Shown here: positions 8,211 to 48,588 of the stretch, piece by piece
How the letters are laid out: each line of letters opens with the position of its first letter
How positions within the stretch are numbered: the first letter of the stretch is position 1
Source: a virus
Strand: one strand, 5' to 3'
Virus record (IMG/VR): IMGVR_UViG_3300005534_000012
Location: 3,474 to 67,473 of that record
DNA length: 64,000 bases
The notes under the pieces: generated by a model
The model's database searches: none
The model's input: the letters and a program-made list of their open reading frames with translations, nothing else
What the model was told of the DNA's origin: nothing
Translations under genes and position numbers: made by a program

Positions 8211-9437
8211 TTACGAAGCATGGGGAATCGCCTGAAGGACCGCATCCCATAGGGGCATGATGCGAGAGCATTCGTACTGTTGCATCTGCGTGGCTCCGAT
8301 GGCTCCGAGTTTGTCGCGGTAATCTCGATTGTCGTACAGGTAACACAACTTCTGGACGAGCGCGTCTACGTCTGAGGAGAACCGAGCGATGCAAGCCCCG
8401 TTGTCGGAGTGGGTTATATGCGATGGAATCAATTCGAATGGGTGCGCGGCAAACTCGATATTGGAGGTGTTCTCACTGACGAGCGCCGGAACGCCGCATG
8501 CTCGCGAGCGGATAGGCGGAAGGCCCGCTCCCTCTCCAATCGTCGTCAGGACGCAGACATCGAGCGAGCGATAGAGATTGACCATCCCCTCCTCGGTCAG
8601 TTGACCGACATCGTTCTGCGGATGGATGGTATTCTTCTCAAGACCGTTCCGGTAAATCAGTTCGGGGATTTGGAACCCGCCGTGAATCATCACGTCCCAT
8701 GTCGTCCAAGGGAGAACGAGTACGTCGTCTCGCATCTTCACAAATTTTCCGCAGGCTTCGAGGAATTCGTCGAAGCGTTTGCGGTATTGATTCGTCGCTA
8801 TCATGCCGACGATGAACTTGTCCTGCGGTAGATTCAACGCTTTACGCGCTTCAGCGCGGTCGCCCGGACAATAGATTTCAGGATGGGCGATGGGGATGAA
8901 GGGAACTCGCAGACCCATGTCTCGCAAAATGCCCGCTTGGGCATAGCGCGAATACGTGATGGGCACGTCGAACGAGGAGATGGCCTCATCCAGGCCTGCC
9001 GCCAGGAACTTGTCCTGGTATAGTCCGTCTAGCGGGAAATACGCAATGTGCGTGAAGTTCCGGCTGTCTCGATTGAGGATTTCCAAGGTTCCGGGGCGGG
9101 CCTGCGCCACACCGGGGTCAGCCTCTGGCTGTCCCATATAGCGGACCATCCACACGTCATACGACGAGATGACGACATCTGCCTTGGTCATCTCCAGGGC
9201 ATGCTTGATGTCGAGTTGACCGAACCGCGTCTCTTGGTTTTGCGCGTTCACGCGCAGGAGTCGGTGTCGCCACGGGCATTCAGATTCAGTGACGCCGGAA
9301 GTCCATCCATTGAACCCCAAGCACAACTGCCACACTTCATGCCCCTGGTCGTGCCAGTGGCGAAGGATATGGCGCAGTGACTCGTTGATGCCCGTGGCCC
9401 CGTGGTCGCTTAGGCCGAGGATTACGCGACGTTCCAT
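8211..9437 (-). CDS. Glycosyltransferase, GT4 / group 1
   Basis: ARKALNLPQDKFIVGM, NQYRK and LYRSLDVCVLTTIGEGAGLP...ACGVP motifs. Start re-called at MERRVILG (GGAG SD). Confidence 0.9.
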   Translation of the reverse strand: MERRVILGLSDHGATGINESLRHILRHWHDQGHEVWQLCLGFNGWTSGVTESECPWRHRLLRVNAQNQETRFGQLDIKHALEMTKADVVISSYDVWMVRYMGQPEADPGVAQARPGTLEILNRDSRNFTHIAYFPLDGLYQDKFLAAGLDEAISSFDVPITYSRYAQAGILRDMGLRVPFIPIAHPEIYCPGDRAEARKALNLPQDKFIVGMIATNQYRKRFDEFLEACGKFVKMRDDVLVLPWTTWDVMIHGGFQIPELIYRNGLEKNTIHPQNDVGQLTEEGMVNLYRSLDVCVLTTIGEGAGLPPIRSRACGVPALVSENTSNIEFAAHPFELIPSHITHSDNGACIARFSSDVDALVQKLCYLYDNRDYRDKLGAIGATQMQQYECSRIMPLWDAVLQAIPHAS

Positions 9438-9462
9438 GCTTTCTCCGACGATACTTTTGCCG

Positions 9463-9544
9463 CGCGACAGGCGTGCGAATTCACTTATTCGACGTATGCC
9501 TGGAGGCTCGGCGGGACTCGAACCCACATTTCACGCCTGTCGCG
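9463..9544 (-). ncRNA. Candidate structured RNA / 5' leader with tRNA-like T-arm
   Basis: A 13-bp perfect inverted repeat encloses GTGGG-TTCGAGT-CCCGC. A -10-like TATTCT lies 6 nt upstream. Confidence 0.5.
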
Positions 9545-17244: not shown

Positions 17245-18372
17245 TCAAAAAGGCATCCGGCTCAGGGCCTGCGTGTAGAGCACTGCCGGGATGTAGCACT
17301 TCGTCACCTGGGCACGCTCCGTCTGGCGCTGGATGACCTTTTCTTCCTCCAGTAAGAGCGGCTGCTCGATGAACTTGACGCCAGCGAAGCCCTTCTGACC
17401 AGCGAGCAGTTCATTGTCGGGCATCTGCTTCGTGATGTAGATGTCCAACCCGAGGAAGTGGCTGATGACGCCTGAGTCAAGGACCTTCGATGCCATCGGG
17501 CCAGCGTTCAGGTAGTTGCTCACCTGCGAGATGAGCAGGAACTTCGCATACGACAGCGGCGACAGAACCATGAAGTCGGCCTTGTAGTTCCGGTTCGCGA
17601 TGTCGGTGACGAGGTTGACGATGTCGGCGAAGACCAACGTGCCAGCCGCGACACCCGACCCACCCGTGTTCGACTGCGAGGTCGAGACAGGCGTGTTGAT
17701 TGCCGCCGCAGCAGGCTGGGAGCCTTGCGCGACTTGCGCCGGGATACCCGTGCGAAGCGTGTTCAGGGTGTCAAGGTCTTCCTTGAGCGCCATGCGCATG
17801 CCGAGACGGGCGAGGTCCAACTGCATGAGCGGGTACGGCGTCCGGCGCTGTTGCTCATACGTGAAGCCGAGGCCACGGCCAATCTTCTTCACGAAGTGAG
17901 TGCGCCGAGTGACGATACCCTGGTCGTCTGGAATCGCGACACCTTGCGCGATTTCATAGACCTGACCCGAATCTTCGAAGGTTCTGATGACCACGGACTC
18001 GCGGTCAATCGGAATCTCCGTGACGAAGTTACTCGTCACCATAGCGTTCAGGTTCGCCATGAGAATCGTATCGAGGAACAACTCCGGTATCGTGCCGCGC
18101 ACGTCATCCGAAGTGAAGAATTCCTCGAACACGTCGCGAGTCAGGTCGATGCCCAGTTCCTTCTTGTAGAAGGCGGTGGCATCGCCAGCCTTGTAACCAC
18201 ATGCTTCCATGTAGTCCGCAACGCTGACACCGGACTCACGCAAGGTGCGTGAGACGGAGCCCTCTGCGAGGTCCGCTATGGGCATTGGTGCGAGGGCAAC
18301 ACCGCCGGACGCAGCCTGGACAGCCTCGACTGCGGCCTTGAGTTTTTCCTCGTTCAGTTTCGCCTTGAACAT
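17245..18372 (-). CDS. Major capsid protein (HK97 fold)
   Basis: EIAQG..IP, KKIGRGLGFTYE, and FLGLDIYITKQMP motifs. Follows the protease and decoration genes. Confidence 0.9.
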   Translation of the reverse strand: MFKAKLNEEKLKAAVEAVQAASGGVALAPMPIADLAEGSVSRTLRESGVSVADYMEACGYKAGDATAFYKKELGIDLTRDVFEEFFTSDDVRGTIPELFLDTILMANLNAMVTSNFVTEIPIDRESVVIRTFEDSGQVYEIAQGVAIPDDQGIVTRRTHFVKKIGRGLGFTYEQQRRTPYPLMQLDLARLGMRMALKEDLDTLNTLRTGIPAQVAQGSQPAAAAINTPVSTSQSNTGGSGVAAGTLVFADIVNLVTDIANRNYKADFMVLSPLSYAKFLLISQVSNYLNAGPMASKVLDSGVISHFLGLDIYITKQMPDNELLAGQKGFAGVKFIEQPLLLEEEKVIQRQTERAQVTKCYIPAVLYTQALSRMPF

Positions 18373-20592: not shown

Positions 20593-20766
20593 TTAGGCGG
20601 GAGCGGGCTGAGGGGGTACGGACTCTACAACTTGGCCGTTTTGGATGGTATTTAAGCGTCGGCAGTGTTTATTCGGGCATTTGACCTGAAGTGTCAGTTC
20701 AGCCACCAGGGCTCCCTGAAACTTCAGGTTTATGCGGTTGCAGTTGGGACAGCGAACCTCTATCAC
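20593..20766 (-). CDS. Mu Com-like zinc-finger protein
   Basis: GTG start overlapping the upstream TGA. EVRCPNCNR...QVKCPNKHCRRLN matches the Com-family pattern. Confidence 0.7.
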   Translation of the reverse strand: MIEVRCPNCNRINLKFQGALVAELTLQVKCPNKHCRRLNTIQNGQVVESVPPQPAPA

Positions 20767-22091
20767 GTCAACCGCGATTCGTAACGCTTCCCGTTGTAGA
20801 AGGCCGACCCGTTGACGATACGGACAGGAGTAAGGTCGAAATCGTTGGGACCGCCGTCTTCGAGGTACGTCACGACGAGCATCCCCTGTTGCCAATTCTG
20901 ACGAACTCCAACGGCAGGGATTGCACTGCGCATTCGTCGCTGGCGGATGTTGTCCACGGGTTCGTCGACTCGACATAGGCATCCCACGCCAATACGACCT
21001 CGTTCGACCTTTTCACCAAAAAGGTGAACAGTCCGCCATTCCATTTCGCGTCGGTGGTTGTCCCCGTAGATGATAGTGGCTCGTTCTTCAGAAACTTTTG
21101 AAGGCTGATGTTGGAAGGCCAGATACGGAGCGAGGCGGACAACACCTCCGGGCCACGCCGCCGAATATCGAATTCCCATCTCGTCCAATCCGAGGAGCAT
21201 TGGAACAGAGTGGATGGGCCACGCATCCGGTTTCTCCTTACCCTCAAGCCACGCTCTTTTGATGCCATGCGCTGCAAGAGCGTTTTTGATGATGAGGTTC
21301 GGAAGACGCGCTTCGTGGTTGCCTTCGCAATAGTCCTGCTGGACCTGTGGACCACAGGCAGATTTTTTCTCGGCCAACCAGCGCTTCGTCCGATTTAGTG
21401 TCATCTGGGTCGTCCGCTGGAATTCCGCCTGCTGTGGATACTTGGGCTGCCATTCGGCGAGGTCCATCACGTCGCCGCCCTCAATCGAGCGGTCGGGGCG
21501 GATATCGTGGCAGATTTGCAACACGACATCCATCGCATGCTCGTCATGGAACGTCTCATACGAAGTCGCGGGGATGGATTCTTCGCCTATCTCGTCACGC
21601 CAGTAGCCGATTTGGTTGTCGGCCGTGATGACGGCGACCTTGAGATTCTCGGGGCGGATGCGAGCCTTTCCCGTATAGCGGATAACGGCAGGCGGAGCGG
21701 GTTGGACAACAGGCCATTTCGGGCCATCCTTCCATGTCGGTTCGAAGACGACCGACATATTCGGAAGGTCAACGGTCTGAATTTTGTTGTCTTCGTCCTT
21801 GATGAACCCTCGATGGGTTCCAATGCGGACCTTCTTGATGTCGCCGACCGCATCCGGGTCGATGTTGTTCTTAGCCAGCAAATCCATGATGTGCTGCGAC
21901 TTGCGAAGCAAATCATCACCGTTGCCCAGCGTGTCAACCTGACGGGGGCCAACGATTTTATTCAATCGCTGTTTAACAGTGGAGGCTGCGAGTCCAAGGT
22001 GACGGGCTAGGGCTGCTGCGTTATTCTTGTGTTCCTTCAGTAACGCTTTCAAAGACTCGTCCGACAAGTTTGCGAGTATCGTCTTCGACAC
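20763..22091 (-). CDS. Calcineurin-like metallophosphoesterase with N-terminal HTH
   Basis: ADNQIG, GGDVMD, GNHE, and GDNHR motifs. N-terminal ALARHLGLAASTV. Confidence 0.75.
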   Translation of the reverse strand: MSKTILANLSDESLKALLKEHKNNAAALARHLGLAASTVKQRLNKIVGPRQVDTLGNGDDLLRKSQHIMDLLAKNNIDPDAVGDIKKVRIGTHRGFIKDEDNKIQTVDLPNMSVVFEPTWKDGPKWPVVQPAPPAVIRYTGKARIRPENLKVAVITADNQIGYWRDEIGEESIPATSYETFHDEHAMDVVLQICHDIRPDRSIEGGDVMDLAEWQPKYPQQAEFQRTTQMTLNRTKRWLAEKKSACGPQVQQDYCEGNHEARLPNLIIKNALAAHGIKRAWLEGKEKPDAWPIHSVPMLLGLDEMGIRYSAAWPGGVVRLAPYLAFQHQPSKVSEERATIIYGDNHRREMEWRTVHLFGEKVERGRIGVGCLCRVDEPVDNIRQRRMRSAIPAVGVRQNWQQGMLVVTYLEDGGPNDFDLTPVRIVNGSAFYNGKRYESRLT

Positions 22092-23729: not shown

Positions 23730-25523
23730 CTACCGAGGCTTGAACCCCATAAAATTCGGGGAACGCTCCCGCAAGAGGGGCATCTGGGCGACCCAATATG
23801 CGGCTCCGGCCATCGCGTCGATAACGTCTTTCGAGCCGCCCAGCGGGTGGTCGATTTTCTTGCCGTTCTGAATCCGAAGCGAACGCCACTCCCGGTAGCC
23901 AACGCAGACGGGCGAAGGGTCCTCGTCGTTGAGTGGGTCGCCGTCCGGGTAGATGAAACAGCGACCGTCCATGACGAATTCTTTGAACGTGTCGTGAACC
24001 TCGGTGTTCCGGTCTACGGAAAGTAGTTTGACGATGTCTTCTTCCTTGATTTTCTTATCGGGGTCTTGCCAGCGGTCGCGAACCTGACGTTTCCCGAGGA
24101 CCTTGTCCATGATTTGCCGGGAATCGACCGACTGCCAGCCGTCATACGACAACGCCCAAATCTTGTGACCCCGCTGTTGGATAGCCTGGACGTACTCACG
24201 AATGTCGCCGAAGTTGATTTCCTTCTCACCCTCGGTCGGGGCGAACTGTTTGATGAGCGTGAAAACGCACGTCGGGCGCTCTATCGGCAACCACAGGTCC
24301 TGAGAGCGGCCACAGGCGATACACGCCTGCGCCTCACGGAAGTTGAATTGGTTACACGGACAGCGCTTCACCGTGACGGGATTTCCCTGCCGCGCCATCG
24401 CGAAGCCGCACTTGTCCTTATTCAAGCCAAGGTCGATATGGATAGCATAGAAACGCGCCGGGAGCCCGTAGAACGTATTTTCGAACTGCCCATACTCGTT
24501 GTATGGTTTCGTCAGCCCGAGTTTCCCGCCAGCCGCGATAGCCTTCAGGTAGAACTCAGGAGACTTGATGTATCCGTCAACGGCAAACGGCGGGTCACAC
24601 TCATACATCGCCCGAGCCATTTCGGGGTTGCGGGCGTAGTCTACGTCGAAGTCTGATTTCTTAACGCGCGGGTTGACCTCCCACGTCGCTAATGGGCCGC
24701 TCGTCCAGCCCCAAGTCGTATTCTCGTTCTCCTTACGCTTCGTTTGAGTAAAGTCGTTGATATAGCGAGGGTAGGAGATAATGACCAATTTACCCACGCC
24801 AGGAAATCGAGAGTTAATGCTAGTGCGAAGAACTCGATAAATGGCATCGGCGGCTTTCTCCGTTTTCTGCCCCTCGGCTTTATTCATGGCTCGAACGACA
24901 TTGGTGTCCTTGAACGCCGACGCTTCGTCCATGACGGCGTAATACATGTTCTTGCCTTCAACCGCATCGCCGTCAGCAGCGGCTGAGATGAATTCTATCT
25001 CGTGGTCGAATTTGATGATGGTCGACTGGATGTCATATTTGCCTTGGAACCATTTCGACCCACGAAGCAATCCCTTGACCTGATTGAGATAGACGCCCTT
25101 CGCTTGGTCTTTGACGTAAGCGACGTTCACGAGTTGGAATCCGGTATTGGGAGCGAGCCCGTAATAAGCATACGGGTCCTTCAGGCACAACAATGAGTAC
25201 GTCTGGCGCAGTCCCCCGAGCGCAGACAGGAAATCCTTGCCAGAACCCTTGCCCCACTCGGCGACGAATTCAATCTTCTGGTTCGTTCGCGGGTCGATGT
25301 CGTCCATCGCCTCCAGCATACCGAACTGCTTATCAGACAATGTGACGCCAGATGCCGACCGATGGGGATTCAACCCCATGTATTCACGGTCGTACAACCA
25401 AACGTCAAGCGGGGCGCGTTCTTCTGCCCACGTATCGGAGAAATGGACCGAGGGCGGTGGAAGCGACTCGAACCAATCGTCTATCGTGGTTAGAAGCAGA
25501 GGGTTAGACGGTTCTTTTGGCAT
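23730..25523 (-). CDS. Terminase large subunit
   Basis: Walker A GKGSGKD, Walker B AVMDE, and nuclease motifs HIDLG, YDGWQS, DHP..GSKDVIDA. Confidence 0.95.
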   Translation of the reverse strand: MPKEPSNPLLLTTIDDWFESLPPPSVHFSDTWAEERAPLDVWLYDREYMGLNPHRSASGVTLSDKQFGMLEAMDDIDPRTNQKIEFVAEWGKGSGKDFLSALGGLRQTYSLLCLKDPYAYYGLAPNTGFQLVNVAYVKDQAKGVYLNQVKGLLRGSKWFQGKYDIQSTIIKFDHEIEFISAAADGDAVEGKNMYYAVMDEASAFKDTNVVRAMNKAEGQKTEKAADAIYRVLRTSINSRFPGVGKLVIISYPRYINDFTQTKRKENENTTWGWTSGPLATWEVNPRVKKSDFDVDYARNPEMARAMYECDPPFAVDGYIKSPEFYLKAIAAGGKLGLTKPYNEYGQFENTFYGLPARFYAIHIDLGLNKDKCGFAMARQGNPVTVKRCPCNQFNFREAQACIACGRSQDLWLPIERPTCVFTLIKQFAPTEGEKEINFGDIREYVQAIQQRGHKIWALSYDGWQSVDSRQIMDKVLGKRQVRDRWQDPDKKIKEEDIVKLLSVDRNTEVHDTFKEFVMDGRCFIYPDGDPLNDEDPSPVCVGYREWRSLRIQNGKKIDHPLGGSKDVIDAMAGAAYWVAQMPLLRERSPNFMGFKPR

Positions 25524-26809: not shown

Positions 26810-27004
26810 ATGCTGAAGAACCGTGGTCAAATCAAGCACATCCTCGACGACTTCGAAAAGCAGACCGGAAAACGACTGTCAAATCTCGACGAGGAACTTG
26901 AGGGAGAGCCTCCCGTCGCTCCAAAAGGCCGACCGAAAGGAAGCAAGGACCGTGACAATCGCAAGCGCCGTATATCTCATCTGCCGAGGGTGCAAGGTCG
27001 GTAA
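26810..27004 (+). CDS. Small basic protein with AT-hook-like KGRPKGSK
   Basis: 64-aa ORF divergent from the terminase genes. Confidence 0.45.
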   Translation: MLKNRGQIKHILDDFEKQTGKRLSNLDEELEGEPPVAPKGRPKGSKDRDNRKRRISHLPRVQGR

Positions 27005-27731
27005 ACGCTATTCCATTGAGGATGAGTCTTCAATGGCGAACTCAGACTTTGGGGAAAAACACCGTCTGCACGATGGCGGCGTAGACATGGTCACTGAGGA
27101 AGTCTTTGTAACGGAACAGATGAACGATGGCTATTCAGACCTTGACGGCATTGCTAAGGCGTTGCCATTATACCGAAAGGCGGGACAGCCTGGACTGTCC
27201 CCAAGCGGCGTTCCTGCTCCATTTGGCGTACCTGCGAAAGTAACGCCACGACCTCATGCTACCGTCAACACCGCACCTCCCATCACGCTCGACAGTCGAC
27301 CGTCATGGGACGAGTATTTCCTCAATCTCGCCGCAGTCGTCGCAACGCGAGGAACTTGCTCTCGACTACAAGTGGGCGCGGTTCTGGTCAGTAAGGACCG
27401 TCGCATCTTGTCAACCGGATACAACGGAGCCCCCGCAGGCACTCGTCACTGCAATCACACACCAGATGGTGGTGATTTAGACAGCGGACATTGCTCTATC
27501 GCTGAACACGCAGAAGGGAACTGCCTACTCTACTCTGACTTTACGGCGCGGCAAGGTGCGACGATGTATCTGACGTGCCAACCGTGCTTACGGTGTTGTC
27601 GGCAGATGGTGACATCGGGGGTGACGCGGGTGGTATTCCGGGCGCGATATGGAGCATCGCTTGACCCGATTGAACGGCTATGTGCGGAGGCAGGGGTCCA
27701 TTTGGTGCACGTCGCTTCGCCCACCACTTAG
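26952..27731 (+). CDS. dCMP deaminase (ComEB-like) with N-terminal extension
   Basis: RPSWDEYF, STGYNGAP, HAE, and PCLRC motifs. The start (GTG with AAGGA) is uncertain. Confidence 0.9.
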   Translation: MTIASAVYLICRGCKVGKRYSIEDESSMANSDFGEKHRLHDGGVDMVTEEVFVTEQMNDGYSDLDGIAKALPLYRKAGQPGLSPSGVPAPFGVPAKVTPRPHATVNTAPPITLDSRPSWDEYFLNLAAVVATRGTCSRLQVGAVLVSKDRRILSTGYNGAPAGTRHCNHTPDGGDLDSGHCSIAEHAEGNCLLYSDFTARQGATMYLTCQPCLRCCRQMVTSGVTRVVFRARYGASLDPIERLCAEAGVHLVHVASPTT

Positions 27732-39035: not shown

Positions 39036-39046
39036 GAAGGACAGCA

Positions 39047-39082
39047 GCCCCCACGAGAAAATCGTGGGGGTTACTTTTTATT
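39047..39082 (+). terminator. Intrinsic terminator
   Basis: CCCCCACGA-GAAAA-TCGTGGGGG followed by TTACTTTTTATT. Confidence 0.65.
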
Positions 39083-39114
39083 GTCTAGTCCCAACCTCCA
39101 ATGCAGGAGCAAAT

Positions 39115-39357
39115 ATGCAAATCACAATCAATCTCGACGACGCAATCGTCGACCAGATAGTGCATGCGCGCGAGCAAATGAAAGCATGCGGTGAAGCGAT
39201 GGGCGCGACGGCGAAAACCGACGCGTACAAAGACCACCAAGTGCAACGTGCGTTCTGGAAAGGTGAATACGACCACCTAAGAGAGCGCATCGGAACACTG
39301 TGCGCAGACCTGTTCATGCGCCACCTGTCACGCGATGAGAAGAAAGCGCAACGATGA
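39115..39357 (+). CDS. Hypothetical early protein
   Basis: AGGAG SD before MQITINLDD. Confidence 0.65.
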   Translation: MQITINLDDAIVDQIVHAREQMKACGEAMGATAKTDAYKDHQVQRAFWKGEYDHLRERIGTLCADLFMRHLSRDEKKAQR

Positions 39358-39523
39358 GCACAGACAGATTCCACGTTCCCGAATGGGAACCGTATAAGGC
39401 ATCGCAAAAGGTGCTTTATTTCGCTCGCAAACTCACAGGTGAAGATTCCCGCGCAACACAGGAAGCCAGAGCACGGCACAACGAACGTGCTCTGGACCTG
39501 ATTGAAGCGCTGAAGACGCGCTC

Positions 39524-39706
39524 ATGAGGGTAATCGAAGGCTCTTTTGACGAACCGAAAAACGACGACGCAGACAGAAGGGAATTAAGCACTTCGCTTCC
39601 CCACGCATGGCTATACGATGAGAGAAGACATCATTACATTTGCACAACATGTGGCATCACTACTGGGGAGGGGGCGACTCGCCTCGTATTTGGGGGGTGC
39701 TCATGA
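39524..39706 (+). CDS. FxEP-tag family small Zn-finger-like protein 1
   Basis: MRVIEGSFDEPKNDD...HAW...CTTC...C. Confidence 0.7.
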   Translation: MRVIEGSFDEPKNDDADRRELSTSLPHAWLYDERRHHYICTTCGITTGEGATRLVFGGCS

Positions 39707-39888
39707 GGGTAATCGAAGGTTCTTTTGACGAACCCATCCACCACGACCCCCCACTGGCGCTTCCCCACCGATGGGACTACAACAATGGAGCAAGCCGCAC
39801 CCAGGCGCAGTATTATCGTTGCCAAGACTGTGATATAACTGCACCAAACGGTACACGCCTTGTGTTTGGGCATTGCAGGCCGCAATGA
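39703..39888 (+). CDS. FxEP-tag family small Zn-finger-like protein 2
   Basis: MRVIEGSFDEPIHHD...HRW...CQDC...C. Paralog of the preceding gene, ATGA overlap. Confidence 0.7.
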   Translation: MRVIEGSFDEPIHHDPPLALPHRWDYNNGASRTQAQYYRCQDCDITAPNGTRLVFGHCRPQ

Positions 39889-40148
39889 TAAATGGGCGCG
39901 AACACGAGCGCATGGTGCGCAGGGCAATCGACGCAGACAAAATCGCGGCCGAGAACAATCGTGAAATGGACCAATGCAAACTGTGTTACACAGACTTGGC
40001 GACATTTCACGATACAGAATTCTTCTACGAATGGGTGACACCAAGCGGGCTACGAATGCGAGCGCATCCGTGGTGCACACCGAAAGTCATGCAGGCGTAT
40101 GCGACGAAATGCAACATCAAAAGCGCCAAAGCGAAAGGATGGAAATAA
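39885..40148 (+). CDS. Hypothetical protein
   Basis: ATGA-coupled. CKLC...HPWC. Confidence 0.55.
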   Translation: MINGREHERMVRRAIDADKIAAENNREMDQCKLCYTDLATFHDTEFFYEWVTPSGLRMRAHPWCTPKVMQAYATKCNIKSAKAKGWK

Positions 40149-40367
40149 GTGTCTATCAGAATAGACGACGAACTACAACGGAACACAGTCAAACGATGGC
40201 GGATTTGGAAAGCCGCTGTCAAACTGCTTTCGTCTTGCTACTATCTCGAAGAAAACCACAGTTACCACTACGACGAGAATGCAAAAATGACGAAAGTCAA
40301 TCAGAACGGGGTAAACGGCTTCCTTGTCCCCATCGTCGTTTTCGTTCCTGAACACGACTGCGAATAA
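40149..40367 (+). CDS. Hypothetical protein
   Basis: 72 aa, GTG start. Confidence 0.5.
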   Translation: MSIRIDDELQRNTVKRWRIWKAAVKLLSSCYYLEENHSYHYDENAKMTKVNQNGVNGFLVPIVVFVPEHDCE

Positions 40368-40469
40368 CAACGCGCGGGAGCACTCCCGCGTATGGTTCTC
40401 AAGCGGCGACACCGTGAGAGAGCCCCCAATATGGGAGTGCACTCAACCAACAAAACGAAAGAGGAATCA

Positions 40470-40691
40470 ATGCCCACACCGTTTCAACTCAAGCGGACCT
40501 ATCTTTTCGCGGACGGGACCGAAATCGAATTCGAGTCCGTGAAGAAGGTCAAGATTCAGGACAATGGCAAGCATGTCATCACGCTGATGAGCGGAAAGCG
40601 CGTCATCGTGAACAACGACTATCGGACGTGCACCATCGAGGGTGAGCGCCCATCGTCAACGCATGGTCGTTCCCCGCAGAGAGTGCGGTAG
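40470..40691 (+). CDS. Hypothetical protein
   Basis: GAGGA SD before MPTPFQLKR. Confidence 0.65.
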   Translation: MPTPFQLKRTYLFADGTEIEFESVKKVKIQDNGKHVITLMSGKRVIVNNDYRTCTIEGERPSSTHGRSPQRVR

Positions 40692-40793
40692 TCTCCAACC
40701 CACGCGGAACGCGGGGGGCGCAAGCCCCTCGTATGATTGCTGAGGGCTAAACCCATACGCAATCCCTTCTAGCGTTTCGCTGAAAGGAATATC

Positions 40794-41024
40794 ATGCAAC
40801 AACCAGACTGCCCAAACTGTCTGGTCAATCGACATGTCGCACCGCGCATCAATACGCAAGCACTCTATTGGTGCGCTATTTGTAAGACCACATTCGAAGG
40901 ACCAGAGAGAACGCACAATCGAAAGCGTAAGGCAAAAGGCCAACGCAAATTCGAAAACTACACGCTCGATGAACTGATGGCAACAGTGCATCGAATGACT
41001 CACACGCCGAAAGGAGCAACATAA
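40794..41024 (+). CDS. Small Zn-ribbon protein
   Basis: CPNC...CAIC, AAGGA SD. Confidence 0.65.
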   Translation: MQQPDCPNCLVNRHVAPRINTQALYWCAICKTTFEGPERTHNRKRKAKGQRKFENYTLDELMATVHRMTHTPKGAT

Positions 41025-41026
41025 CC

Positions 41027-42622
41027 GTGCCAACGCCAGTTGCTGAAGAAGGACCGAAACGATACTCTGGGTCATTGTCAATGGCAAAGCGTATCGTTTC
41101 GGCCATCAAAAGAGGACATCAGCAGTCCATCCGAACCGTCTTCCTCGAATTCAACCTCAAGCGCCACCAAGGGCCCAAATACGTAAGGTGGCTCCGCAAG
41201 GCCATCGGAGTCTCAATCAGCGTTTGCGCCGATTGCAACAGTCCGTCGATTGCAAGCCTCACGCGAACGCTCACGTCAGAGGCAAAGCGCGTGTGCCCGC
41301 ATTGCGCCCGCAATTACACCCATTGTCAAGAGTGCCAAACGACGTTCCTGCGAACCGCGATGCATATAGACGAATATCGGGCGATATGCATTCCGTGTCG
41401 TGACAGATTCTACAGCCGATGCACGATATGCGAAGTCCTCTGGCGACAATCAGAAATGTCCTCAAGAGACAGAAGCATTTGTGCGCACTGTTTCATGAGT
41501 CGCCCGCGCGACCTCGATTTCAACCCCCGGCTCTTGGGAGAGCCGCCCAACATCGCAGGCCACGGAGACAACGTGCTGGGATATTGTGCGCCATTCCCAC
41601 GTCCAAAAGACGGCATCTTGCTCGGCGTCGAATTAGAGGTCGAAGTCCAAGGATTGGGCTCGCCGAATAGAGATGGCGATGGGCGCTTGATTTCAAGCAG
41701 TGTCGTGCAAGAAGTCGCCACGCACACGCATACGTTGCTTCATGAAGATGGGCGACGATTCGCGTTCCTCAAACAAGACGGCTCACTGAGCGGATACGCA
41801 GGCGGTTTCGAAATCGTCAGCGCACCCGCAGGACTCGACGACCACGCAAGAATATGGCGGCGATTCTTCCAAGAGCGCAACCAACGCTTGCGGGGGCACG
41901 AATCAGGCAACTGCGGCATGCATATCCATATCGGCCGATATGGCATGTCATTTCCTCCATTTCTAGAGCCGATTGAAAAGCGCAAACCAACCGTGCCCGG
42001 ATTATCGCCGGGGGTTCGTGAGAGTCGAACGCGACTTGGCGAAACTGCGGCCCATCTGTGGCGCATGTGGCAGTTTCTCAGTCACCCAGACCATTACGGA
42101 CTCGTAACCGACATCGCAGGACGAAGCCTCACCACAGGCAACGGCGGGAACTTCGCGGCGATACGCAGAGACGACAGGCGCTCCACCGCCCGAAGCGTCA
42201 AGCCGCAATATCAATCGGGCGCAAGCAGACGCTACATGGCGTTGAATTGGCTGAACGACAACACGGTCGAATTCAGAATGTTCAATTCAACGCTCAACTA
42301 CAATACGTTCATGAAGAACCTCGAATTCGCGCATGCTCTGGTCATGTTCACGCGACCAGGGAGAATCGCGTTCATCCAGAAACAATGCCTCAAGGAATTT
42401 TTTGAATTCGTCAAGGACGAACGAAAAACGTATCCTGCGTTATTCGCCTTCCTGGGATTCAAAAACTACGGGCACGGAATGTTCAAGGTCAAACCGCGAC
42501 CCGTCGCCATGCAAGAAACCCAACAACAGGCTCCACAGCCAACAACACTCGCTGTGCCAACACCTGAAATCGTGGATGCACAGCCAACAACGACAAGGAG
42601 ACGCCGCATAGTATGTGCGTAA
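41027..42622 (+). CDS. Putative amidoligase (COOH-NH2 ligase) with N-terminal CxxC repeats
   Basis: GVELEVE, DGSL, FEIVS, CGMHIH, RYMALN, and TVEFRMF motifs. Confidence 0.88.
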   Translation: MPTPVAEEGPKRYSGSLSMAKRIVSAIKRGHQQSIRTVFLEFNLKRHQGPKYVRWLRKAIGVSISVCADCNSPSIASLTRTLTSEAKRVCPHCARNYTHCQECQTTFLRTAMHIDEYRAICIPCRDRFYSRCTICEVLWRQSEMSSRDRSICAHCFMSRPRDLDFNPRLLGEPPNIAGHGDNVLGYCAPFPRPKDGILLGVELEVEVQGLGSPNRDGDGRLISSSVVQEVATHTHTLLHEDGRRFAFLKQDGSLSGYAGGFEIVSAPAGLDDHARIWRRFFQERNQRLRGHESGNCGMHIHIGRYGMSFPPFLEPIEKRKPTVPGLSPGVRESRTRLGETAAHLWRMWQFLSHPDHYGLVTDIAGRSLTTGNGGNFAAIRRDDRRSTARSVKPQYQSGASRRYMALNWLNDNTVEFRMFNSTLNYNTFMKNLEFAHALVMFTRPGRIAFIQKQCLKEFFEFVKDERKTYPALFAFLGFKNYGHGMFKVKPRPVAMQETQQQAPQPTTLAVPTPEIVDAQPTTTRRRRIVCA

Positions 42623-43890
42623 TCATTCACAAACCAGCCGAACGAGAACTGACCGAATGGACCCTTCGGGAGGGACTACGCCGAAATTCAGACGGATGGG
42701 GGCTAGTCGCATATCCCGAAGGGCGCGGCTCAGAACCCGTCATCCACAGGGGACTGACAGGTATCGACGATTTCCTCAAGACGTATGAGCCATACGCCAA
42801 GGGCGTCGAAACAGTCATCCATTTCCGTTTTGCAACTCATGGCCTGAAAGACCTGGAGAACTGTCATCCGTATGACGTGGTTCCGGGCGTGGTCATGATG
42901 CACAACGGAATCTTGAGCGTCAAAACGCCGGACAAGGACCTGTCAGACACCGGGCATTTCGTCCAACTCATCAAGCCAATGCTCGAAGAAGACCCCACAA
43001 TGGTCGAAAAAGAGCACTGGCTGAAGATGGTCGGCGAACTAATCGGCAAGGGCAACAAACTCGTCTTCATGACAAAGAACGGCGTGTTCTACGTCAACAA
43101 AGAACAAGGCTCAATCGACAAAGACGTGTGGTTCTCGAACAGCACGTTATTCTATTCCACGCCGTCTTCATATAAACAGCCGCCGTATGGCGTCACGCAC
43201 TACGGATACGGATGCCAAATAGATGAAGACGACTGCTACGACCTGGGAACTGTTTCAGACTCCTTTCGCAAATATAAAAGAGGCAAGCGAGGGAGTCGCA
43301 AGCCGTCGGCTTTTACGCCGACTACGCCTCCAGCAAGCCCGAAACCGGCGCTGAAACCCGGGACTTATACCGCGAACACGGTCCCGGTCAGCACCTATCA
43401 GCAAGCACAGATAGACGAGAAATGGAGAATGTTCTACACGACATCGGCAAACGAGTTAGCGGCTCGTGCGGAGCCGATGGAAGAACAGTACGTCTGTCTG
43501 TGGGGCGAGATGATGGTGAAACGTCCCCAAGAAATCTACGATTTCGTGTATAAGCATCCGTGGCTTGCGACCTACATGCTGTATGTGATGGGTCGCCAGG
43601 AGTTGATGGGCGACAAGGTCGATATGGCCGTCGAACTGCAACTCAACGAGAATGCCGAACACGACATCTATTTGCGGAAGCAAAAAGAGGCCGACGAAAA
43701 AGCGATTGAGGCCGCAACCAAAATCGCTCAAGAAGCCACCCGTCAGGGTATCGAACTGAACGGTTGCTCGGCGGCACAGATACAAGCACAGATAATCGCG
43801 GGCAATCCGTTGACGACGAAAGAAGACATGGTCGACGGAATCCCGATTATCCGGCCTCCGCAGGCTCAGGCCCCTGTAATCGTACTATGA
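42613..43890 (+). CDS. Class II glutamine amidotransferase (Ntn hydrolase)
   Basis: N-terminal M-C, NSDGWG, HFRFATHG, NCHP, HNG, and SDT motifs. Confidence 0.92.
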   Translation: MCVIIHKPAERELTEWTLREGLRRNSDGWGLVAYPEGRGSEPVIHRGLTGIDDFLKTYEPYAKGVETVIHFRFATHGLKDLENCHPYDVVPGVVMMHNGILSVKTPDKDLSDTGHFVQLIKPMLEEDPTMVEKEHWLKMVGELIGKGNKLVFMTKNGVFYVNKEQGSIDKDVWFSNSTLFYSTPSSYKQPPYGVTHYGYGCQIDEDDCYDLGTVSDSFRKYKRGKRGSRKPSAFTPTTPPASPKPALKPGTYTANTVPVSTYQQAQIDEKWRMFYTTSANELAARAEPMEEQYVCLWGEMMVKRPQEIYDFVYKHPWLATYMLYVMGRQELMGDKVDMAVELQLNENAEHDIYLRKQKEADEKAIEAATKIAQEATRQGIELNGCSAAQIQAQIIAGNPLTTKEDMVDGIPIIRPPQAQAPVIVL

Positions 43891-44486
43891 TTACGATACA
43901 GGAAGCCAGGACAAGCGCAGAAAAGCGCTCGCAATTCCTTGAGGAGTTGCAACGCGCATATAGGCCTGCGCTTGTCCGCTTCATCAAGGAACATCCGCTA
44001 GACGACACAAGCGATGCATCGCAAGATGTCATCGTTCAAGGGTTTCTCTACCGGGCGAATCGAGCGATTGATTCTGTGGACCTTGATGACGACGGTCGCG
44101 GAAACCATGACCCGGCGGCCTATTGTGCGGCACAGGGAATGTACGGCGCGAGAGACGCCGTGCGTTCCCTGACGCACGAGCGGCACAAAGTGCACAAGAA
44201 CACTGTCCTGTTCCCCACTGCCGCCGAAATGGCACAGTGGGGATTCGACAAAGAAGAACCAGACGTTGCAGACGACGTATGCTTCAAGCGAGACATGGAA
44301 GAATTTCTGGAGTGGCTAACCACGCCGGAAAGAGACGTCTGCAACTTGCTGGCGCTAGGCTACGGACGAAAACCACAAGGCATTGTGGAAATTGCTAACA
44401 TCCTCGATACGTCCATCGTGAGAGTGAAAAACATTCTCTCGCGAGTACGTATCAAGGCCACTATTCTGCTGAAAGCAGGCACATAA
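43887..44486 (+). CDS. Sigma-70-like RNA polymerase factor
   Basis: LTTPERDV...EIANILDTSIVRVKNILSR resembles a region-4 HTH, with a region-2-like segment. ATGA-coupled start. Confidence 0.65.
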   Translation: MITIQEARTSAEKRSQFLEELQRAYRPALVRFIKEHPLDDTSDASQDVIVQGFLYRANRAIDSVDLDDDGRGNHDPAAYCAAQGMYGARDAVRSLTHERHKVHKNTVLFPTAAEMAQWGFDKEEPDVADDVCFKRDMEEFLEWLTTPERDVCNLLALGYGRKPQGIVEIANILDTSIVRVKNILSRVRIKATILLKAGT

Positions 44487-44512
44487 TCGACTTCGCTGAA
44501 CACGGCGCGGAA

Positions 44513-44725
44513 ATGGAAATCTTTTCCGACCAAATGAATGACGGTCGGAAAAGACGCTACAATATCTACGCCCTACGACTGGTCTGGTATCCTATCATCT
44601 TTGGATGGATAGGAATATGCTTATTCGGAATGTGGTGCGGATGGTGGGTCGCAACGATACCGCTCATCGGCGGTTTCCTTGCGCTCGCCATGACGCACAG
44701 GAGGTTCTATCGTGGCACCCTATAA
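44513..44725 (+). CDS. Small membrane protein
   Basis: Two hydrophobic segments. Confidence 0.55.
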   Translation: MEIFSDQMNDGRKRRYNIYALRLVWYPIIFGWIGICLFGMWCGWWVATIPLIGGFLALAMTHRRFYRGTL

Positions 44726-44942
44726 ATTAGAAACGACAGATTTCGAGGAGCCGAAACACAAAGACACAGACGAAGCGCAATTCATGCGCCTCAATCAAGA
44801 ATACTCCGAGGAGGATGAATACGAATACTCCGAGGAGGATGAATACGAATACGCAGACTACGATGAGGAGGAAGGTTACGTTTCTTTCCAGTGTTCCGAC
44901 CCGACTTGCCCAGAATGCAATCCAAACGGGAACGAGGAATAA
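44712..44942 (+). CDS. FxEP-tag family acidic protein 3
   Basis: MAPYKLETTDFEEPKHKD, a Glu/Tyr-rich tract, and C...C..C. Ends GNEE. Confidence 0.7.
   Translation: MAPYKLETTDFEEPKHKDTDEAQFMRLNQEYSEEDEYEYSEEDEYEYADYDEEEGYVSFQCSDPTCPECNPNGNEE
44799..44852 (+). repeat. 24-bp tandem duplication encoding EYSEEDEY x2
   Basis: GAATACTCCGAGGAGGATGAATAC x2 followed by GAATAC. Confidence 0.9.
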
Positions 44943-45379
44943 TGCTTCTACAGCAGCCTCCTACATTAGATTTCAAGGAACCCGAAGCGGTCGACTACTT
45001 CCTCACGACCACCCAGCGGGCAATTGCAAGGTACATTGAGCGTCCAATCTCGCTAGAGAAAATACGGGAGATTCGCCTTGAGATGAACCGCTCACCAGAG
45101 TTTGCTGACCATATAGCGCGACACAGCCAATATAACCAGCCAAGTTTAATCTTGAAGGCGCGGACAACGCTTCTCGGTGCCATGCGAAACAAGATTCCAA
45201 ACTTTGTCCGCCTTTACTCAGATAAAATTGGCGGCACCATCTACCTCACAGGATGGTATGACGCAACCATATCTCTACGAACGCGCTACCTCCCGACCTT
45301 CTTAACAAGTCGCGTGATGGGCGAAGAATTTCATTTCGCGTTTGACCCATTTCTAAGGAAAGTGAAGGTATTCTCTTAA
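44942..45379 (+). CDS. Hypothetical protein (weak DFKEP tag)
   Basis: TAATG-coupled start MLLQQPPTLDFKEPE. Confidence 0.6.
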   Translation: MLLQQPPTLDFKEPEAVDYFLTTTQRAIARYIERPISLEKIREIRLEMNRSPEFADHIARHSQYNQPSLILKARTTLLGAMRNKIPNFVRLYSDKIGGTIYLTGWYDATISLRTRYLPTFLTSRVMGEEFHFAFDPFLRKVKVFS

Positions 45380-45565
45380 ATGATGGTGCTCAATAAGGAC
45401 GACTTTGCGGAACCGCAACACAACGACCCGCCGCAAAGCGAAAACAGAAACCTCCACATTTGGATTCCATTCAGCAGGGGCATAATGGTTTGCGAACGCT
45501 GCTTGCGTAGAACGCAAGCATCTGTGCCCTCACGCATCGGCTGTACGCCAAGGCGACCCCGCTAA
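45380..45565 (+). CDS. FxEP-tag family small Zn-finger-like protein 4
   Basis: DDFAEPQHNDPP...HIW...CERC...C. Confidence 0.7.
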   Translation: MMVLNKDDFAEPQHNDPPQSENRNLHIWIPFSRGIMVCERCLRRTQASVPSRIGCTPRRPR

Positions 45566-45762
45566 TGGCAACAGCGGCAAGGGTTTTTGAGGGGACCTTT
45601 GACGAGCCCAAACACAGAGAGCCAAGGGCCCACTCATGGACGAACCATTATGCTCAAACGCCACATAGGCCACTGACGTACCGATGCATCCACTGCGGAA
45701 AGGTCGCCACCGTTGACGTGATTTACTTAATAAGGTATGAAGAATGTCTCCCTATAAACTAG
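45565..45762 (+). CDS. FxEP-tag family small Zn-finger-like protein 5
   Basis: RVFEGTFDEPKHRE...HSW...CIHC...C. Confidence 0.7.
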   Translation: MATAARVFEGTFDEPKHREPRAHSWTNHYAQTPHRPLTYRCIHCGKVATVDVIYLIRYEECLPIN

Positions 45763-46118
45763 ACAACGACGACTTTGAGGAACCGCAACACAACGATACG
45801 GAAATCCCCAGACACGATTTGAGTCGCCCACGCGAGGGGATATCGTTTGACCTTTTTGACCGTGCAAATACGCTGGCAATGGCAGACCAATACCGTCAGA
45901 TGGCCGAAAACATGGAAAGACTATATAATACCGCGCCAGTCTCCACAGCCAGCACACAATCCGTACAATTTGACCAAGCCGCTCTCGACCAAGTGGTGCG
46001 GGAACTATTTAGCCCGATAATCGGCGACATCCCAGACGAAGAAGAAGACAACGAAGAAGAAATAGAATACCAGCCGGGGTGGGGCGTTGAATCTCTAGAG
46101 GACGATGTAACTGAATGA
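45744..46118 (+). CDS. FxEP-tag family acidic protein 6
   Basis: MSPYKLDNDDFEEPQHND, with an acidic C-terminus ending in E. Confidence 0.7.
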   Translation: MSPYKLDNDDFEEPQHNDTEIPRHDLSRPREGISFDLFDRANTLAMADQYRQMAENMERLYNTAPVSTASTQSVQFDQAALDQVVRELFSPIIGDIPDEEEDNEEEIEYQPGWGVESLEDDVTE

Positions 46119-46508
46119 GTCGCGCTAAAAAGATTAGACCCCCGGGCCAACGAGGGCCGAAGCCCGCGCAAGATTCTACCTCATTATTCCACACTACGGA
46201 ACCATTTCGTCATTTTGTCCTGCTTTTCGGCATATTCAAGCGTTTTCGTCAAATCTTCATATAGGTGCACTTCATTTTGCAATCGTTCGAATCTTCGTTT
46301 CTGCATCAGGACCGAGAATTCGAACGTGAACACAAGCAGAGAAAGCGAATGAGCGAAGCGAATCGTTTTTCGATGCGTGTTCGACACACACTGATTTCTG
46401 TTCCTTCTTGTGCAATGCGACATTTGTCGTAGGTGCACTTTGATTTGCAGTTGCGTCAATCCTTGGTGGCGTGACGTGACGATATGTCTATAGAAAGGTG
46501 GCTCATGA

Positions 46509-46980
46509 ATGTCGCAATGCAATCACGACCTTGCAAAAAGAGTCGTACCAGGCGTCTTCTACTGCTCCGACTGTGGTAGTGGGCTCGATGTGGATTTCGA
46601 AACCATTTCTAGCGATGCACTCGAAGTGGCACTGGCGGCTGCCGAGGCGGATAAGGCCGCTTCCGCTGAAAGTGTTGCGCAAACGGGCGTACGACAAGAC
46701 GTACGTCAAGCGGGCGCAGAGGTCGCTTCAGAGTCAGGGGGTGGAGTATCTGTCACCGACAAGTCAAAAAGCAAAAAGCCTAAAAGACCGGGCCGTCCCC
46801 GAACAAGACCGATACCGCAAACTGTGCCAATCGGAGTTTTGTCGGAACACGTATCTGATAGACGCGAAGAACCGCACCCGGTCCAAGTTTTGCCCCCCAT
46901 GCCAGAAGATTCGGGAGCGCAAGTTGGCGACCGACCGAGCCCGCAAGCGTCGTCAGGAATACAAGCCGGAACGAATGTGA
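46509..46980 (+). CDS. Zn-finger protein, apparently split across two frames
   Basis: The N-terminal CNH...CSDC lies in one frame, and the C-terminal CQSEFC...CPPC lies in the +1 frame ending at 46980. Confidence 0.4.
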
Positions 46981-47567: not shown

Positions 47568-47857
47568 TGCAAGCAACGCCGCAGACGACCTCACAGATAG
47601 CGTACCAGCGTTCAAGGCGCGGTTCGCAGGACAGACTTCGGCGCATTGAATCATTCGTCCGCAGTCGGGGAATAATGGGCGCGACGGGTGACGAGATAGA
47701 GATTGAACTGGGAATCAAGCACCAGTCGCTTGGTCATCCCCTTCTCCAACTGCGAGAGAACAACGTCCTGTGGAACAGCGGAAAAACTCGCCCCACTCGC
47801 TCGGGGTACGCCGCCATCGTGTGGGTGCATCGTTGGTATAAATTGGAGGGACATTGA
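47564..47857 (+). CDS. Winged-helix DNA-binding protein
   Basis: GATGDEIE..LG..HQS...SGKTRPTRSG..AIVW. Confidence 0.7.
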   Translation: MMQATPQTTSQIAYQRSRRGSQDRLRRIESFVRSRGIMGATGDEIEIELGIKHQSLGHPLLQLRENNVLWNSGKTRPTRSGYAAIVWVHRWYKLEGH

Positions 47858-48588
47858 GAATAGTCTGCATCAGCGATACGCATACGTATGGCCCGATAAT
47901 GCAACGCCCGATACCATTGGGCGACGTGCTCATCCATTCTGGGGACCTAACATTTCGAGGCACAGAAACCGAGGTTCGTGCGGAGTTAACGTGGCTGGCA
48001 TCGCAACCGCATGAGAACAAATTGTTCATCGCGGGAAACCATGACTTCTTCTTCGACCCCAATCATCCGGCCGAATTTCGTGGGTGGAAACTGCGCCCGC
48101 ATATCGAGGTTGCAGATATGCTTGCTGAATTGCCGGGGTTGACATATTTGGAAGATTCGGGTGTTCTCATCGACGGAATCATTTTCTACGGTTCTCCGTG
48201 GCAACCACCGTTCTATGATTGGGCGTTCAATCTGGGGAGTCGTGGAAATCCTTCGGCGCAGGAGGTGTGGTCGAACATTCCCCTAGATACGAATGTGCTC
48301 ATCACGCACGGCCCCCCGGCGGGAATACTCGATTGGACCTATGATACGATGCGTAAACCCCACTATCTAAACAATGATGAATATGATTTTGGGGGACGAG
48401 ACAATCGTAAGGGGTGCCCCGTTCTGCGAGAGAAGATTGCAGAATTGAAACAATTAAAACTCCACACATTCGGCCATCTTCATGAGGCGTATGGTTTTGA
48501 AGAACGAGACGGTGTGATGTTCTTCAATGCCGCTATCAACACCCGCGAATATGAGCCGATAAATCCCCCAATGGTATTTGACCTATGA
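47854..48588 (+). CDS. Calcineurin-like metallophosphoesterase
   Basis: SDTH, GD, GNHD, THGPP, and GHLHE motifs. Confidence 0.92.
   Translation: MRIVCISDTHTYGPIMQRPIPLGDVLIHSGDLTFRGTETEVRAELTWLASQPHENKLFIAGNHDFFFDPNHPAEFRGWKLRPHIEVADMLAELPGLTYLEDSGVLIDGIIFYGSPWQPPFYDWAFNLGSRGNPSAQEVWSNIPLDTNVLITHGPPAGILDWTYDTMRKPHYLNNDEYDFGGRDNRKGCPVLREKIAELKQLKLHTFGHLHEAYGFEERDGVMFFNAAINTREYEPINPPMVFDL

Follow-up and report, generated by a model that had tools for sequence, protein, structure and literature searches.

A recurrent N-terminal motif of about 14 residues in a family of small proteins encoded within a single phage gene array

The phage record IMGVR_UViG_3300005534_000012 of IMG/VR (67,473 bp, rated 96% complete) encodes six small proteins that carry the same short motif, F-x-E-P-x-[HN]-x-[DE], close to their N-termini. 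We analysed a stretch of 64,000 nucleotides, hereafter the window, which comprises bases 3474-67473 of the record; positions are those of the window, and genes are named by their first base. In all six open reading frames (ORFs) named in a preliminary description of this DNA, the motif is present within the first 20 residues as described, with its phenylalanine at residue 8 (39524), 8 (39703), 11 (44712), 9 (45380), 12 (45565) and 11 (45744). The weaker seventh copy noted there also exists: ORF 44942-45379 begins with TLDFKEPEAVD, its phenylalanine at residue 11 and the histidine missing, and judged by sequence it is probably a degenerate member. The family is real and statistically solid. As far as the sequence searches reach, it appears to be new and lineage-restricted, and was found only in this phage.

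The pattern F.EP.[HN].[DE] has six matches in the six-frame translation of the window. All of them lie on the + strand, in genome frames 0, 0, 1, 1, 2 and 2, each in the frame of its own ORF of 60-124 codons and near the start of that ORF, which agrees with the N-terminal restriction proposed earlier. From residue frequencies 0.048 matches were expected (Poisson P(>=6) = 1.6e-11), and 300 first-order Markov simulations of the window averaged 0.047 matches, with at most one in any of them; since the pattern was defined after the data had been seen, the P values are generous. The plain string F.EP occurs 18 times, and seven of these 18 matches are the tagged ORFs. In a motif-free, all-versus-all comparison of the N-termini of the 149 + strand ORFs between 35 and 64 kb, tag pairs scored 76, 59, 51 and 44, unrelated pairs at most 38. 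The similarity extends upstream of the phenylalanine to a pair of residues, hydrophobic or basic, and an acidic one (RVIE, RVFE, KLE, KLD, VLN). In total the motif, hereafter the tag, spans about 14 residues with the consensus [hydrophobic/basic]2-[DE]-x-x-[DST]-F-[DEA]-E-P-x-H-x-[DE], and it is the most constrained part of the family. Both sub-types distinguished in the preliminary description (RVxEG[ST]FDEP, found in both gene clusters, and PYKL...DFEEP) are present and distributed as claimed; 45380 is intermediate, with a tag nearest to that of 45744 and a zinc-ribbon body. The 3,473 bases by which the record exceeds the window contain no further copy. In the tail-gene region, about 1,324 bases ahead of window base 1, a 195-codon frame on the + strand encodes AFAEPQRRR 17 codons past a stop. 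This string has FAEPQ in common with 45380; the match probably arose by chance, in a frame that runs antisense to real genes.

A nucleic-acid element, that is, a DNA or RNA site of a translational-operator or promoter-like kind lying incidentally just inside several ORFs, would account for the fixed distance from the start codons and for the near-identical tag DNA of two pairs (36/42 nt in 39524/39703, 33/42 nt in 45380/45744). However, most of the variation is held by third codon positions. Averaged over the eight core codons, positions 1 and 2 carry 1.65 and 1.76 bits of information and position 3 carries 1.21 bits, and at the five fixed residues one of ten first and second positions varies versus four of five third positions (Fisher p 0.017). 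Distant pairs encode the same residues by different codons: the tags of 39524 and 45565 have 9/14 residues in common with only four codons identical, the same is true of 44712 and 45744, and the synonyms TTT/TTC, GAA/GAG, CCG/CCC and GAC/GAT all alternate between copies. Every copy is in frame with its ORF, and sigma-70-like promoters in the region number 9 versus 8.7 expected, which is no excess. We regard a nucleic-acid element as highly improbable. Because third codon positions vary most and distant pairs keep their residues with different codons, selection seems to act on the peptide and not on DNA or RNA, as the preliminary description had argued from synonymous differences. The near-identical tag pairs fit recent duplication or gene conversion and would by themselves contribute little independent evidence.

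Beyond the tag, the six carriers differ. Four of them (39524, 39703, 45380 and 45565) are full-length paralogs with invariant F8, E10, P11, H22, W24, C40, C43 and C58, which corresponds to the four H-x-W...CxxC...C cores recognised before, and two (44712 and 45744) are the acidic proteins of the same account, both with an isoelectric point (pI) of 4.1. In 44712 the tag is followed by acidic EEDEYEY repeats, then by C-x4-C-x2-C and a C-terminal E-C-N-P. For 45744, about 39 disordered N-terminal residues, helices at 40-63 and 78-93 and an acidic disordered tail were predicted. An AF2 model of a zinc-ribbon member (39703, four-row alignment) has a three-stranded core with a predicted local distance difference test score (pLDDT) of about 81, and residues 1-20, which include the tag, lack secondary structure at pLDDT 55-59; the first ~39 residues of 45744 were predicted at 56-60. 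The tag is thus predicted to lie in a disordered extension outside the confidently folded core.

The fold of the zinc-ribbon model was not matched significantly by Foldseek in PDB (best E 1.3), nor was it in BFVD (best E 0.22). With VIA-align, 14 of 48,161 chains reached Z >= 2, all of them C1 or cysteine-rich domains or proteins containing one, and the best match was weak (Z 3.3, root-mean-square deviation 4.8 over 57 residues). The ESM Atlas gave no usable match for 39703 or 45744. Searches of the tagged proteins against Pfam, PHROG and NCBIfam returned sub-threshold zinc-ribbon noise only. The motif of zinc-binding anti-sigma (ZAS) proteins is H-x3-C-x2-C, and this spacing is not present in the four paralogs, where 15-17 residues separate the invariant histidine from CxxC.

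Across the carriers the pI runs from 4.1 to 9.8 and the cysteine count is 3 or 0, so the bodies cannot share one surface. A profile of the zinc-ribbon body, searched against 1,362 ORFs of the genome, matched no ORF but the four tagged copies (E <= 1.6e-14), the next best value being 0.012; hence each copy of this body is tagged, and the tag also occurs on other bodies. The preliminary description had spoken of a constant tag with variable cargo. That part of it stands which concerns the differing bodies and the presence of the tag on additional ones, but the phrase was overstated, given that four of the six are paralogs over their full length.

We tentatively favour, at a little short of an even chance, the reading that the N-terminal linear motif is a docking peptide which brings differently equipped members to one shared partner. 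Repeated local duplication in one early-type gene array would have yielded the six to seven small proteins, and the disordered tag would dock each of them on that partner. Once docked, the bodies would act differently: four as H/C3 zinc-ribbon-like modules, one as an acidic repeat protein, one as a helical protein with an acidic tail and perhaps one as a basic protein of 145 residues. The excess of the motif over expectation, its strictly N-terminal position, the codon pattern of peptide-level selection, the predicted disorder, the dissimilarity of the bodies and the top scores of tag pairs among the compared N-termini all argue for docking. As to the partner, we infer a preference for a hub protein of the host or RNA polymerase, in combination with the phage ECF-like (extracytoplasmic function) sigma factor candidate of the same array, and in second place for the adjacent pair of an Amidoligase_2 enzyme and a glutamine-amidotransferase-like (GATase-like) protein.

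A rival account takes the carriers as a plain paralog family that arose by six to seven duplications of one ancestral gene for a small zinc-binding protein. The effector would then be the peptide, such as an E/H/D peptide that inserts into a target as an inhibitor or metal binder, with the remainder drifting or decaying in some copies. It differs from the docking reading mainly in whether the bodies matter. The four zinc-ribbon members do align over their whole length and keep H, W and three Cys throughout, 45380 bridges both tag sub-types, and adjacent sets of small paralogs are common in phage early regions (three of 79 viral amidoligase loci, see below). In addition, MAFFT aligned the C-terminal E-C-N-P of 44712 and E-Y-Q-P of 45744 with [HEG]-C-x-P of the zinc ribbons. 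Because of this alignment, and because in 45380 a tag like that of 45744 precedes a zinc-ribbon body, we think that all members descend from one gene. On the other hand, beyond residues 2-21 the acidic members detectably resemble neither one another nor the zinc-ribbon body, and the range of pI and the total loss of cysteine in 45744 argue for distinct roles of the bodies rather than for a single decaying one. We judge the plain paralog account somewhat unlikely, although it deserves serious weight.

Several points weigh against the docking reading. Common descent with a fast-evolving middle part may explain much of the pattern, and the N-terminus may be conserved because the activity of these diverging paralogs resides in it, without any cargo as a distinct element. 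The conservation is that of six paralogs of one genome without relatives anywhere, and the tag pairs with 36/42 and 33/42 identical nucleotides could reflect recent duplication or gene conversion in place of long-term selection. The carriers are predicted genes, and disorder predicted from one to four sequences is weak evidence. Lastly, the single co-fold, with the amidoligase, is weak.

A third possibility is that the tag serves as a sorting or turnover signal, either as a capsid-targeting sequence or as an N-terminal degron that times when a host protease removes early proteins. The internal proteins of phage T4 provide the model: a short N-terminal capsid-targeting sequence on otherwise different small proteins directs them to one partner, and the T4 prohead protease cleaves at L/I-x-E sites. 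The likeness consists of a short N-terminal peptide common to otherwise different small phage proteins, of its extreme position, and of the triplets VIE, VFE, KLE and KLD before the core, which recall those sites. The differences are that the tagged genes belong to an early-type array on the replication strand, more than 13 kb from the head genes, and that the two N-terminal sequences are not similar. Nor was a prohead protease recognised in the head module with PHROGs and Pfam, where several proteins are without a family. We consider a sorting or turnover signal improbable. Mimicry of the single-stranded DNA-binding protein (SSB) tail, of clamp-binding motifs, of the TolB box or of ZAS proteins was rejected, as the tag sequences do not fit the respective consensus. 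Intrinsic destabilisation of the ribosome by N-termini rich in D, E and P was rejected as well; it leaves the invariant phenylalanine and the near-invariant histidine unexplained.

The preliminary description had not recognised a described family in these proteins, and the searches concur: Pfam, PHROG and NCBIfam hold no match, and there is no relative among 1.84 billion representative proteins. An exhaustive HMMER search of these 1,835,955,588 sequences gave six matches at E <= 0.001. Four are the phage's own proteins, and the two others, long tandem-repeat proteins that sum 15 and 19 weak stretches, were rejected as artefacts. In a word-based search of 5.8 billion proteins with the alignment of six proteins (E <= 10), 4 of 214 candidates matched, all of them the phage's own. 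Clusters of exact sequences contain one or two members, which derive from the same phage in other assemblies. The same tagged proteins are recorded on a second contig of 78,977 bases, compared with 67,473 bases in the IMG/VR record, so the phage genome or its flanks may extend past that record. At the DNA level, 39200-46600 had no match in 50,697 phage records. Single-protein locus searches of IMG/VR returned no relatives of the amidoligase, of the large terminase (TerL) or of the primase-helicase; with the GATase-like protein two distant loci were obtained, both without tags. Among metagenome contigs, the amidoligase locus search gave 212 pattern matches, none of which is a relative. The profile search for tag-family relatives in other phages and metagenomes, which the preliminary description had suggested, therefore found none outside this phage.

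Pattern searches in DNA were likewise unproductive. DFEEPxHxD has two stretches in IMG/VR, both inside longer ORFs, and EG[ST]FDEPxH has three, none N-terminal in an open small ORF. In metagenomes, at least 119 stretches encode DFEEPxHxD; in the 80 loci examined, the pattern nowhere forms the N-terminal tag of a small ORF. Roughly 15 of these 80 (L015, L016, L023, L024, L028, L041, L043, L048, L049, L058, L060, L069, L070, L074 and L086) encode a family with the internal motif ...VV[KR][AS]DFEEPGHEDV[VF]RK..., which we take to resemble the alpha-proteobacterial ATPase-inhibitor zeta or DUF1476 type. Although the nine-residue pattern is the same, the motif of the ADFEEPGHEDV proteins lies at least ~58 residues from the first in-frame start, the ORF ends 46-51 codons after it, and the surrounding sequence is unrelated to the phage proteins; the tagged proteins have no zeta-like Pfam match at E <= 0.1. 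This family was discarded as a by-product of the pattern search, with nothing beyond the pattern in common. Literature searches with the peptide strings found nothing relevant to phages or bacterial proteins in titles and abstracts, and the portions of the literature that were available describe no N-terminal motif family of this kind.

The enzyme genes of the array suggest a further role. The tag may be the recognition element or the modification site for the Amidoligase_2/GATase-like pair, so that a carboxylate, either the invariant Glu of F-x-E-P or one in the acidic tails, would be activated and then amidated with GATase-derived ammonia or ligated to an amine, by analogy with the leaders of peptides synthesised ribosomally and modified after translation (RiPPs) or with Pup/PafA. 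We regard this as unlikely, and the narrower claim, that the six tagged proteins are natural substrates and that the enzyme recognises F-x-E-P-x-H-x-D and modifies the invariant Glu or the acidic tails, as a shade more doubtful again. In its favour, both enzymes are encoded in one packed array with all tagged genes, and Glu is among the invariant residues of the tag. The amidoligase matches PF12224 at 29.2 bits (cut-off 22), over the C-terminal part of the model only (200-245 of 245). It has 184 relatives at E <= 1e-5, many with PF12224, and retains all 17 columns that are invariant in the catalytic region of the family (58 sequences including its own), among them G200, E202, E204, D251, S253, E262, H299, H301, R366, N407, E415 and R417. 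A search of PDB sequences gave nothing below E 0.4. Its N-terminal ~170 residues (41027-41600) contain about eight CxxC pairs, and because the same array occurs in the consensus of 58 Amidoligase_2 relatives, a multi-zinc-ribbon N-terminal region appears to be a feature of this phage-type subfamily. The GATase-like protein begins with MC, as N-terminal nucleophile (Ntn) amidotransferases do and as its relatives in loci L004 and L008 likewise do. It scores 22.7 bits against GATase_4 (cut-off 23), matches phrog_25883 (E 2e-7) and the glmS N-terminal region (E 1e-4), and has a C-terminal extension of 225 residues without an assigned family.

Co-folding of a tagged zinc-ribbon protein with the amidoligase, one of the partners proposed earlier, gave scores of 0.51, 0.00 and 0.40 (median 0.40) against a best value of 0.00 for three controls, with alignments of 58 rows for the amidoligase and four for the tagged protein. 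In calibration, 58 of 80 solved complexes and 2 of 110 mismatches reached the mark, and only 7 of those 80 complexes and both mismatches did so at 0.60 or less; by the tool's own rating, a pass of 0.40 is wrong more often than right. Contact agreement between the runs is at least 0%, the partner has a pLDDT of at least 43, and the output gives no interface from which an involvement of the tag could be read. As weak support, the co-fold raises the amidoligase reading a little, and the amidoligase as partner is unproven.

Comparison among phages argues against the tag as substrate or leader. In 83 loci with amidoligase or GATase relatives (996,590 bases, 17,170 ORFs), the predicted co-occurrence of the tag with such genes failed throughout. 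A tag-like N-terminus was seen in none of four loci (L003, L004, L007 and L008) and in none of 79 further viral amidoligase loci, where the sole exception is one chance antisense ORF of 48 residues. Profiles of the tag family found nothing among the 17,170 ORFs (best E 0.015). The gene caller used for the 79 loci recovered three of the six tagged genes in a control on the window, so that single genes may be missed there but a family is unlikely to be. No other multi-gene N-terminal motif family was present in the 83 loci beyond three ordinary adjacent paralog sets. These are a trio of 103-116 residues with an N-terminal LW..K.PK motif (L162, 5438-7495, +) and two pairs of small paralogs (L131, 3000-3645, -; L159, 9780-10387, +), all apparently ordinary tandem paralogs unrelated to the tag family.

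The known systems with which the arrangement may be compared share only some of its traits. In RiPP pathways, lasso precursors have an aromatic-x-x-Pro leader motif, and graspetide leaders offer a further comparison. The array resembles them in its several precursor-like genes with a conserved N-terminal motif (an aromatic residue with Pro at +3) and a divergent rest, located near a carboxylate-amine ligase and an Ntn-amidotransferase-like protein. It differs in that the tagged proteins, with 60-124 residues and a folded zinc-binding core, are atypical as precursors, in that Pfam detects no PqqD or RiPP recognition element (RRE) domain in 20 array proteins, in that the enzyme is a glutamine-synthetase-like Amidoligase_2 and not an ATP-grasp or Asn-synthetase-like cyclase, and in the missing co-occurrence of precursor and enzyme across genomes (0/83 loci). 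The system of Pup and PafA-Dop likewise combines a small, partly disordered acidic protein with a carboxylate-amine ligase of the glutamine-synthetase fold and an amidase-type partner. The reactive residue of Pup, however, lies in a C-terminal GGQ or GGE. The tagged proteins end in ...GGCS, ...CRPQ, ...NGNEE, ...RRPR, ...LPIN and ...DVTE, that is, without GG[QE]; their conserved element is N-terminal, and there is no proteasome context.

The closest counterparts of 41027 and 42613 are the pairs of Amidoligase_2 and class-II GATase of other phages (LUZ24-like, phiEco32, OM43 MEP401/402), which our pair resembles also in its early region rich in small ORFs; no tagged small-protein family is present in the relatives examined. 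Amidoligase_2 is common in viral contigs, with relatives encoded in 492 of 580 among the IMG/VR pattern matches listed, and in MW202733 and MEP401 an amidoligase is followed by a protein of ~290-305 residues amid small ORFs. To our knowledge, the gap on the function of the phage pair dates back to 2009. The available portions of the literature searched contain no experimental characterisation of it. The pair is listed in LUZ24-like phages (PMC3890496) and in OM43 phages, where its function is described as unexplored and cell-wall modification is proposed (PMC10580990, citing Iyer 2009). A further paper notes amidoligase and amidotransferase domains beside thymidine-hypermodification genes and proposes DNA hypermodification (PMC8989533).

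The array that holds all tagged genes (Table 1) extends from a terminator-like hairpin (39046-39072) to a gene-poor spacer of 390 nt (46119-46508), and many of its starts overlap the preceding stops. Two small genes are followed by tagged genes 1 and 2, four small genes (one for a zinc ribbon), the amidoligase, the GATase-like protein, the ECF-like sigma candidate, a two-transmembrane (two-TM) protein of 70 residues, tagged gene 3, the weak copy and tagged genes 4-6. The tagged clusters had been described as flanking the amidoligase/GATase pair; they do lie on both sides of it, but the four small genes intervene on one side and the sigma candidate and two-TM genes on the other. The ATG of tagged gene 1 overlaps the preceding stop (ATGA). 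Tagged gene 2 is its tandem duplicate, with 56% identity. The longest form of this ORF begins at TTG 39640, and the ATG at 39703 was preferred, since the context of 39524 recurs there (CTCATGAGGGTAATCGAAGG). Tagged gene 3 has a GTG start with the ribosome-binding site AGGAGG 7 nt upstream, and tagged gene 5 starts over the preceding stop (TAATG). The sigma candidate aligns through residues 18-190 with positions 3-160 of 165 of TIGR02937 at 28.8 bits (cut-off 42.9) and matches phrog_1740 (E 6e-4), with no Pfam match at E <= 0.01; with its neighbour it may represent a phage-encoded ECF-like sigma with a membrane partner.

Table 1 Positions of the tagged genes, their array neighbours and structural marker genes in the window
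Feature	Position	Strand	Remarks
Packed gene array holding all tagged genes	39046-46508	+	hairpin to spacer
Tagged gene 1	39524-39706	+	60 aa; tag RVIEGSFDEPKNDD, nt 39527-39568, N replacing H; H-x-W...CxxC...C core
Tagged gene 2	39703-39888	+	61 aa from ATG; tag RVIEGSFDEPIHHD, nt 39706-39747; zinc-ribbon-like core
Amidoligase_2 (PF12224) enzyme	41027-42622	+	531 aa; candidate partner only
Class-II (Ntn) glutamine-amidotransferase-like protein	42613-43890	+	425 aa; starts MCVII
Divergent ECF-like sigma factor candidate	43887-44486	+	199 aa
Two-TM protein	44513-44725	+	70 aa; directly after sigma candidate, in frequent anti-sigma gene position
Tagged gene 3	44712-44942	+	76 aa; pI 4.1; tag KLETTDFEEPKHKD, nt 44724-44765
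Probable degenerate member	44942-45379	+	145 aa; pI 9.7
Tagged gene 4	45380-45565	+	61 aa; pI 9.8; tag VLNKDDFAEPQHND, nt 45386-45427; zinc-ribbon-like core
Tagged gene 5	45565-45762	+	65 aa; tag RVFEGTFDEPKHRE, nt 45580-45621; zinc-ribbon-like core
Tagged gene 6	45744-46118	+	124 aa; pI 4.1; no Cys; tag KLDNDDFEEPQHND, nt 45756-45797
Tape measure	870-5942	-	structural genes
Major head protein	17245-18372	-	structural genes
Large terminase	23730-25523	-	structural genes

The source phage is uncultured and siphovirus-like and may derive from a soil metagenome. One soil metagenome run, a candidate source, is listed as containing the region among DNA runs, and no RNA sequencing run is. The structural genes occupy the - strand. 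From about 36 kb a + strand block begins with small ORFs and continues with replication and recombination genes for a metallophosphoesterase, a PD-(D/E)XK nuclease, a RecA-like protein, helicases and a primase-helicase. The metallophosphoesterase of this block (47854-48588, PF00149) is the second of the window; a protein of 442 residues encoded between the terminase/portal region and the head genes (20763-22091, -) matches a metallo-phosphoesterase PHROG (phrog_20266, E 6e-45). Within the tail/structural module lies a glycosyltransferase-like gene (8211-9527, -; 438 aa; phrog_2170, E 5.7e-24). At the strand switch, the gene 26823-27731 (+) encodes 302 residues, of which the C-terminal half contains a domain of dCMP/cytidine deaminases (PF00383, E 1.9e-19). 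Combined with the amidoligase/GATase pair, this deaminase domain could hint at nucleotide or DNA modification; neither a hydroxymethylase nor a kinase was seen among the window proteins scanned.

Small phage proteins usually lack relatives for comparison, and for this reason a short linear motif common to otherwise different ones is seldom noticed. Here a single genome supplies six to seven copies, and the tag can therefore be defined and mutated directly. Should it dock on a host hub, it would mark a takeover target on which several effectors converge. Should the tagged proteins instead be substrates of the neighbouring enzymes, they would represent an undescribed kind of phage-encoded, leader-directed protein-modification system and would offer the first testable substrate handle for an amidoligase/GATase pair that is widespread in phages.

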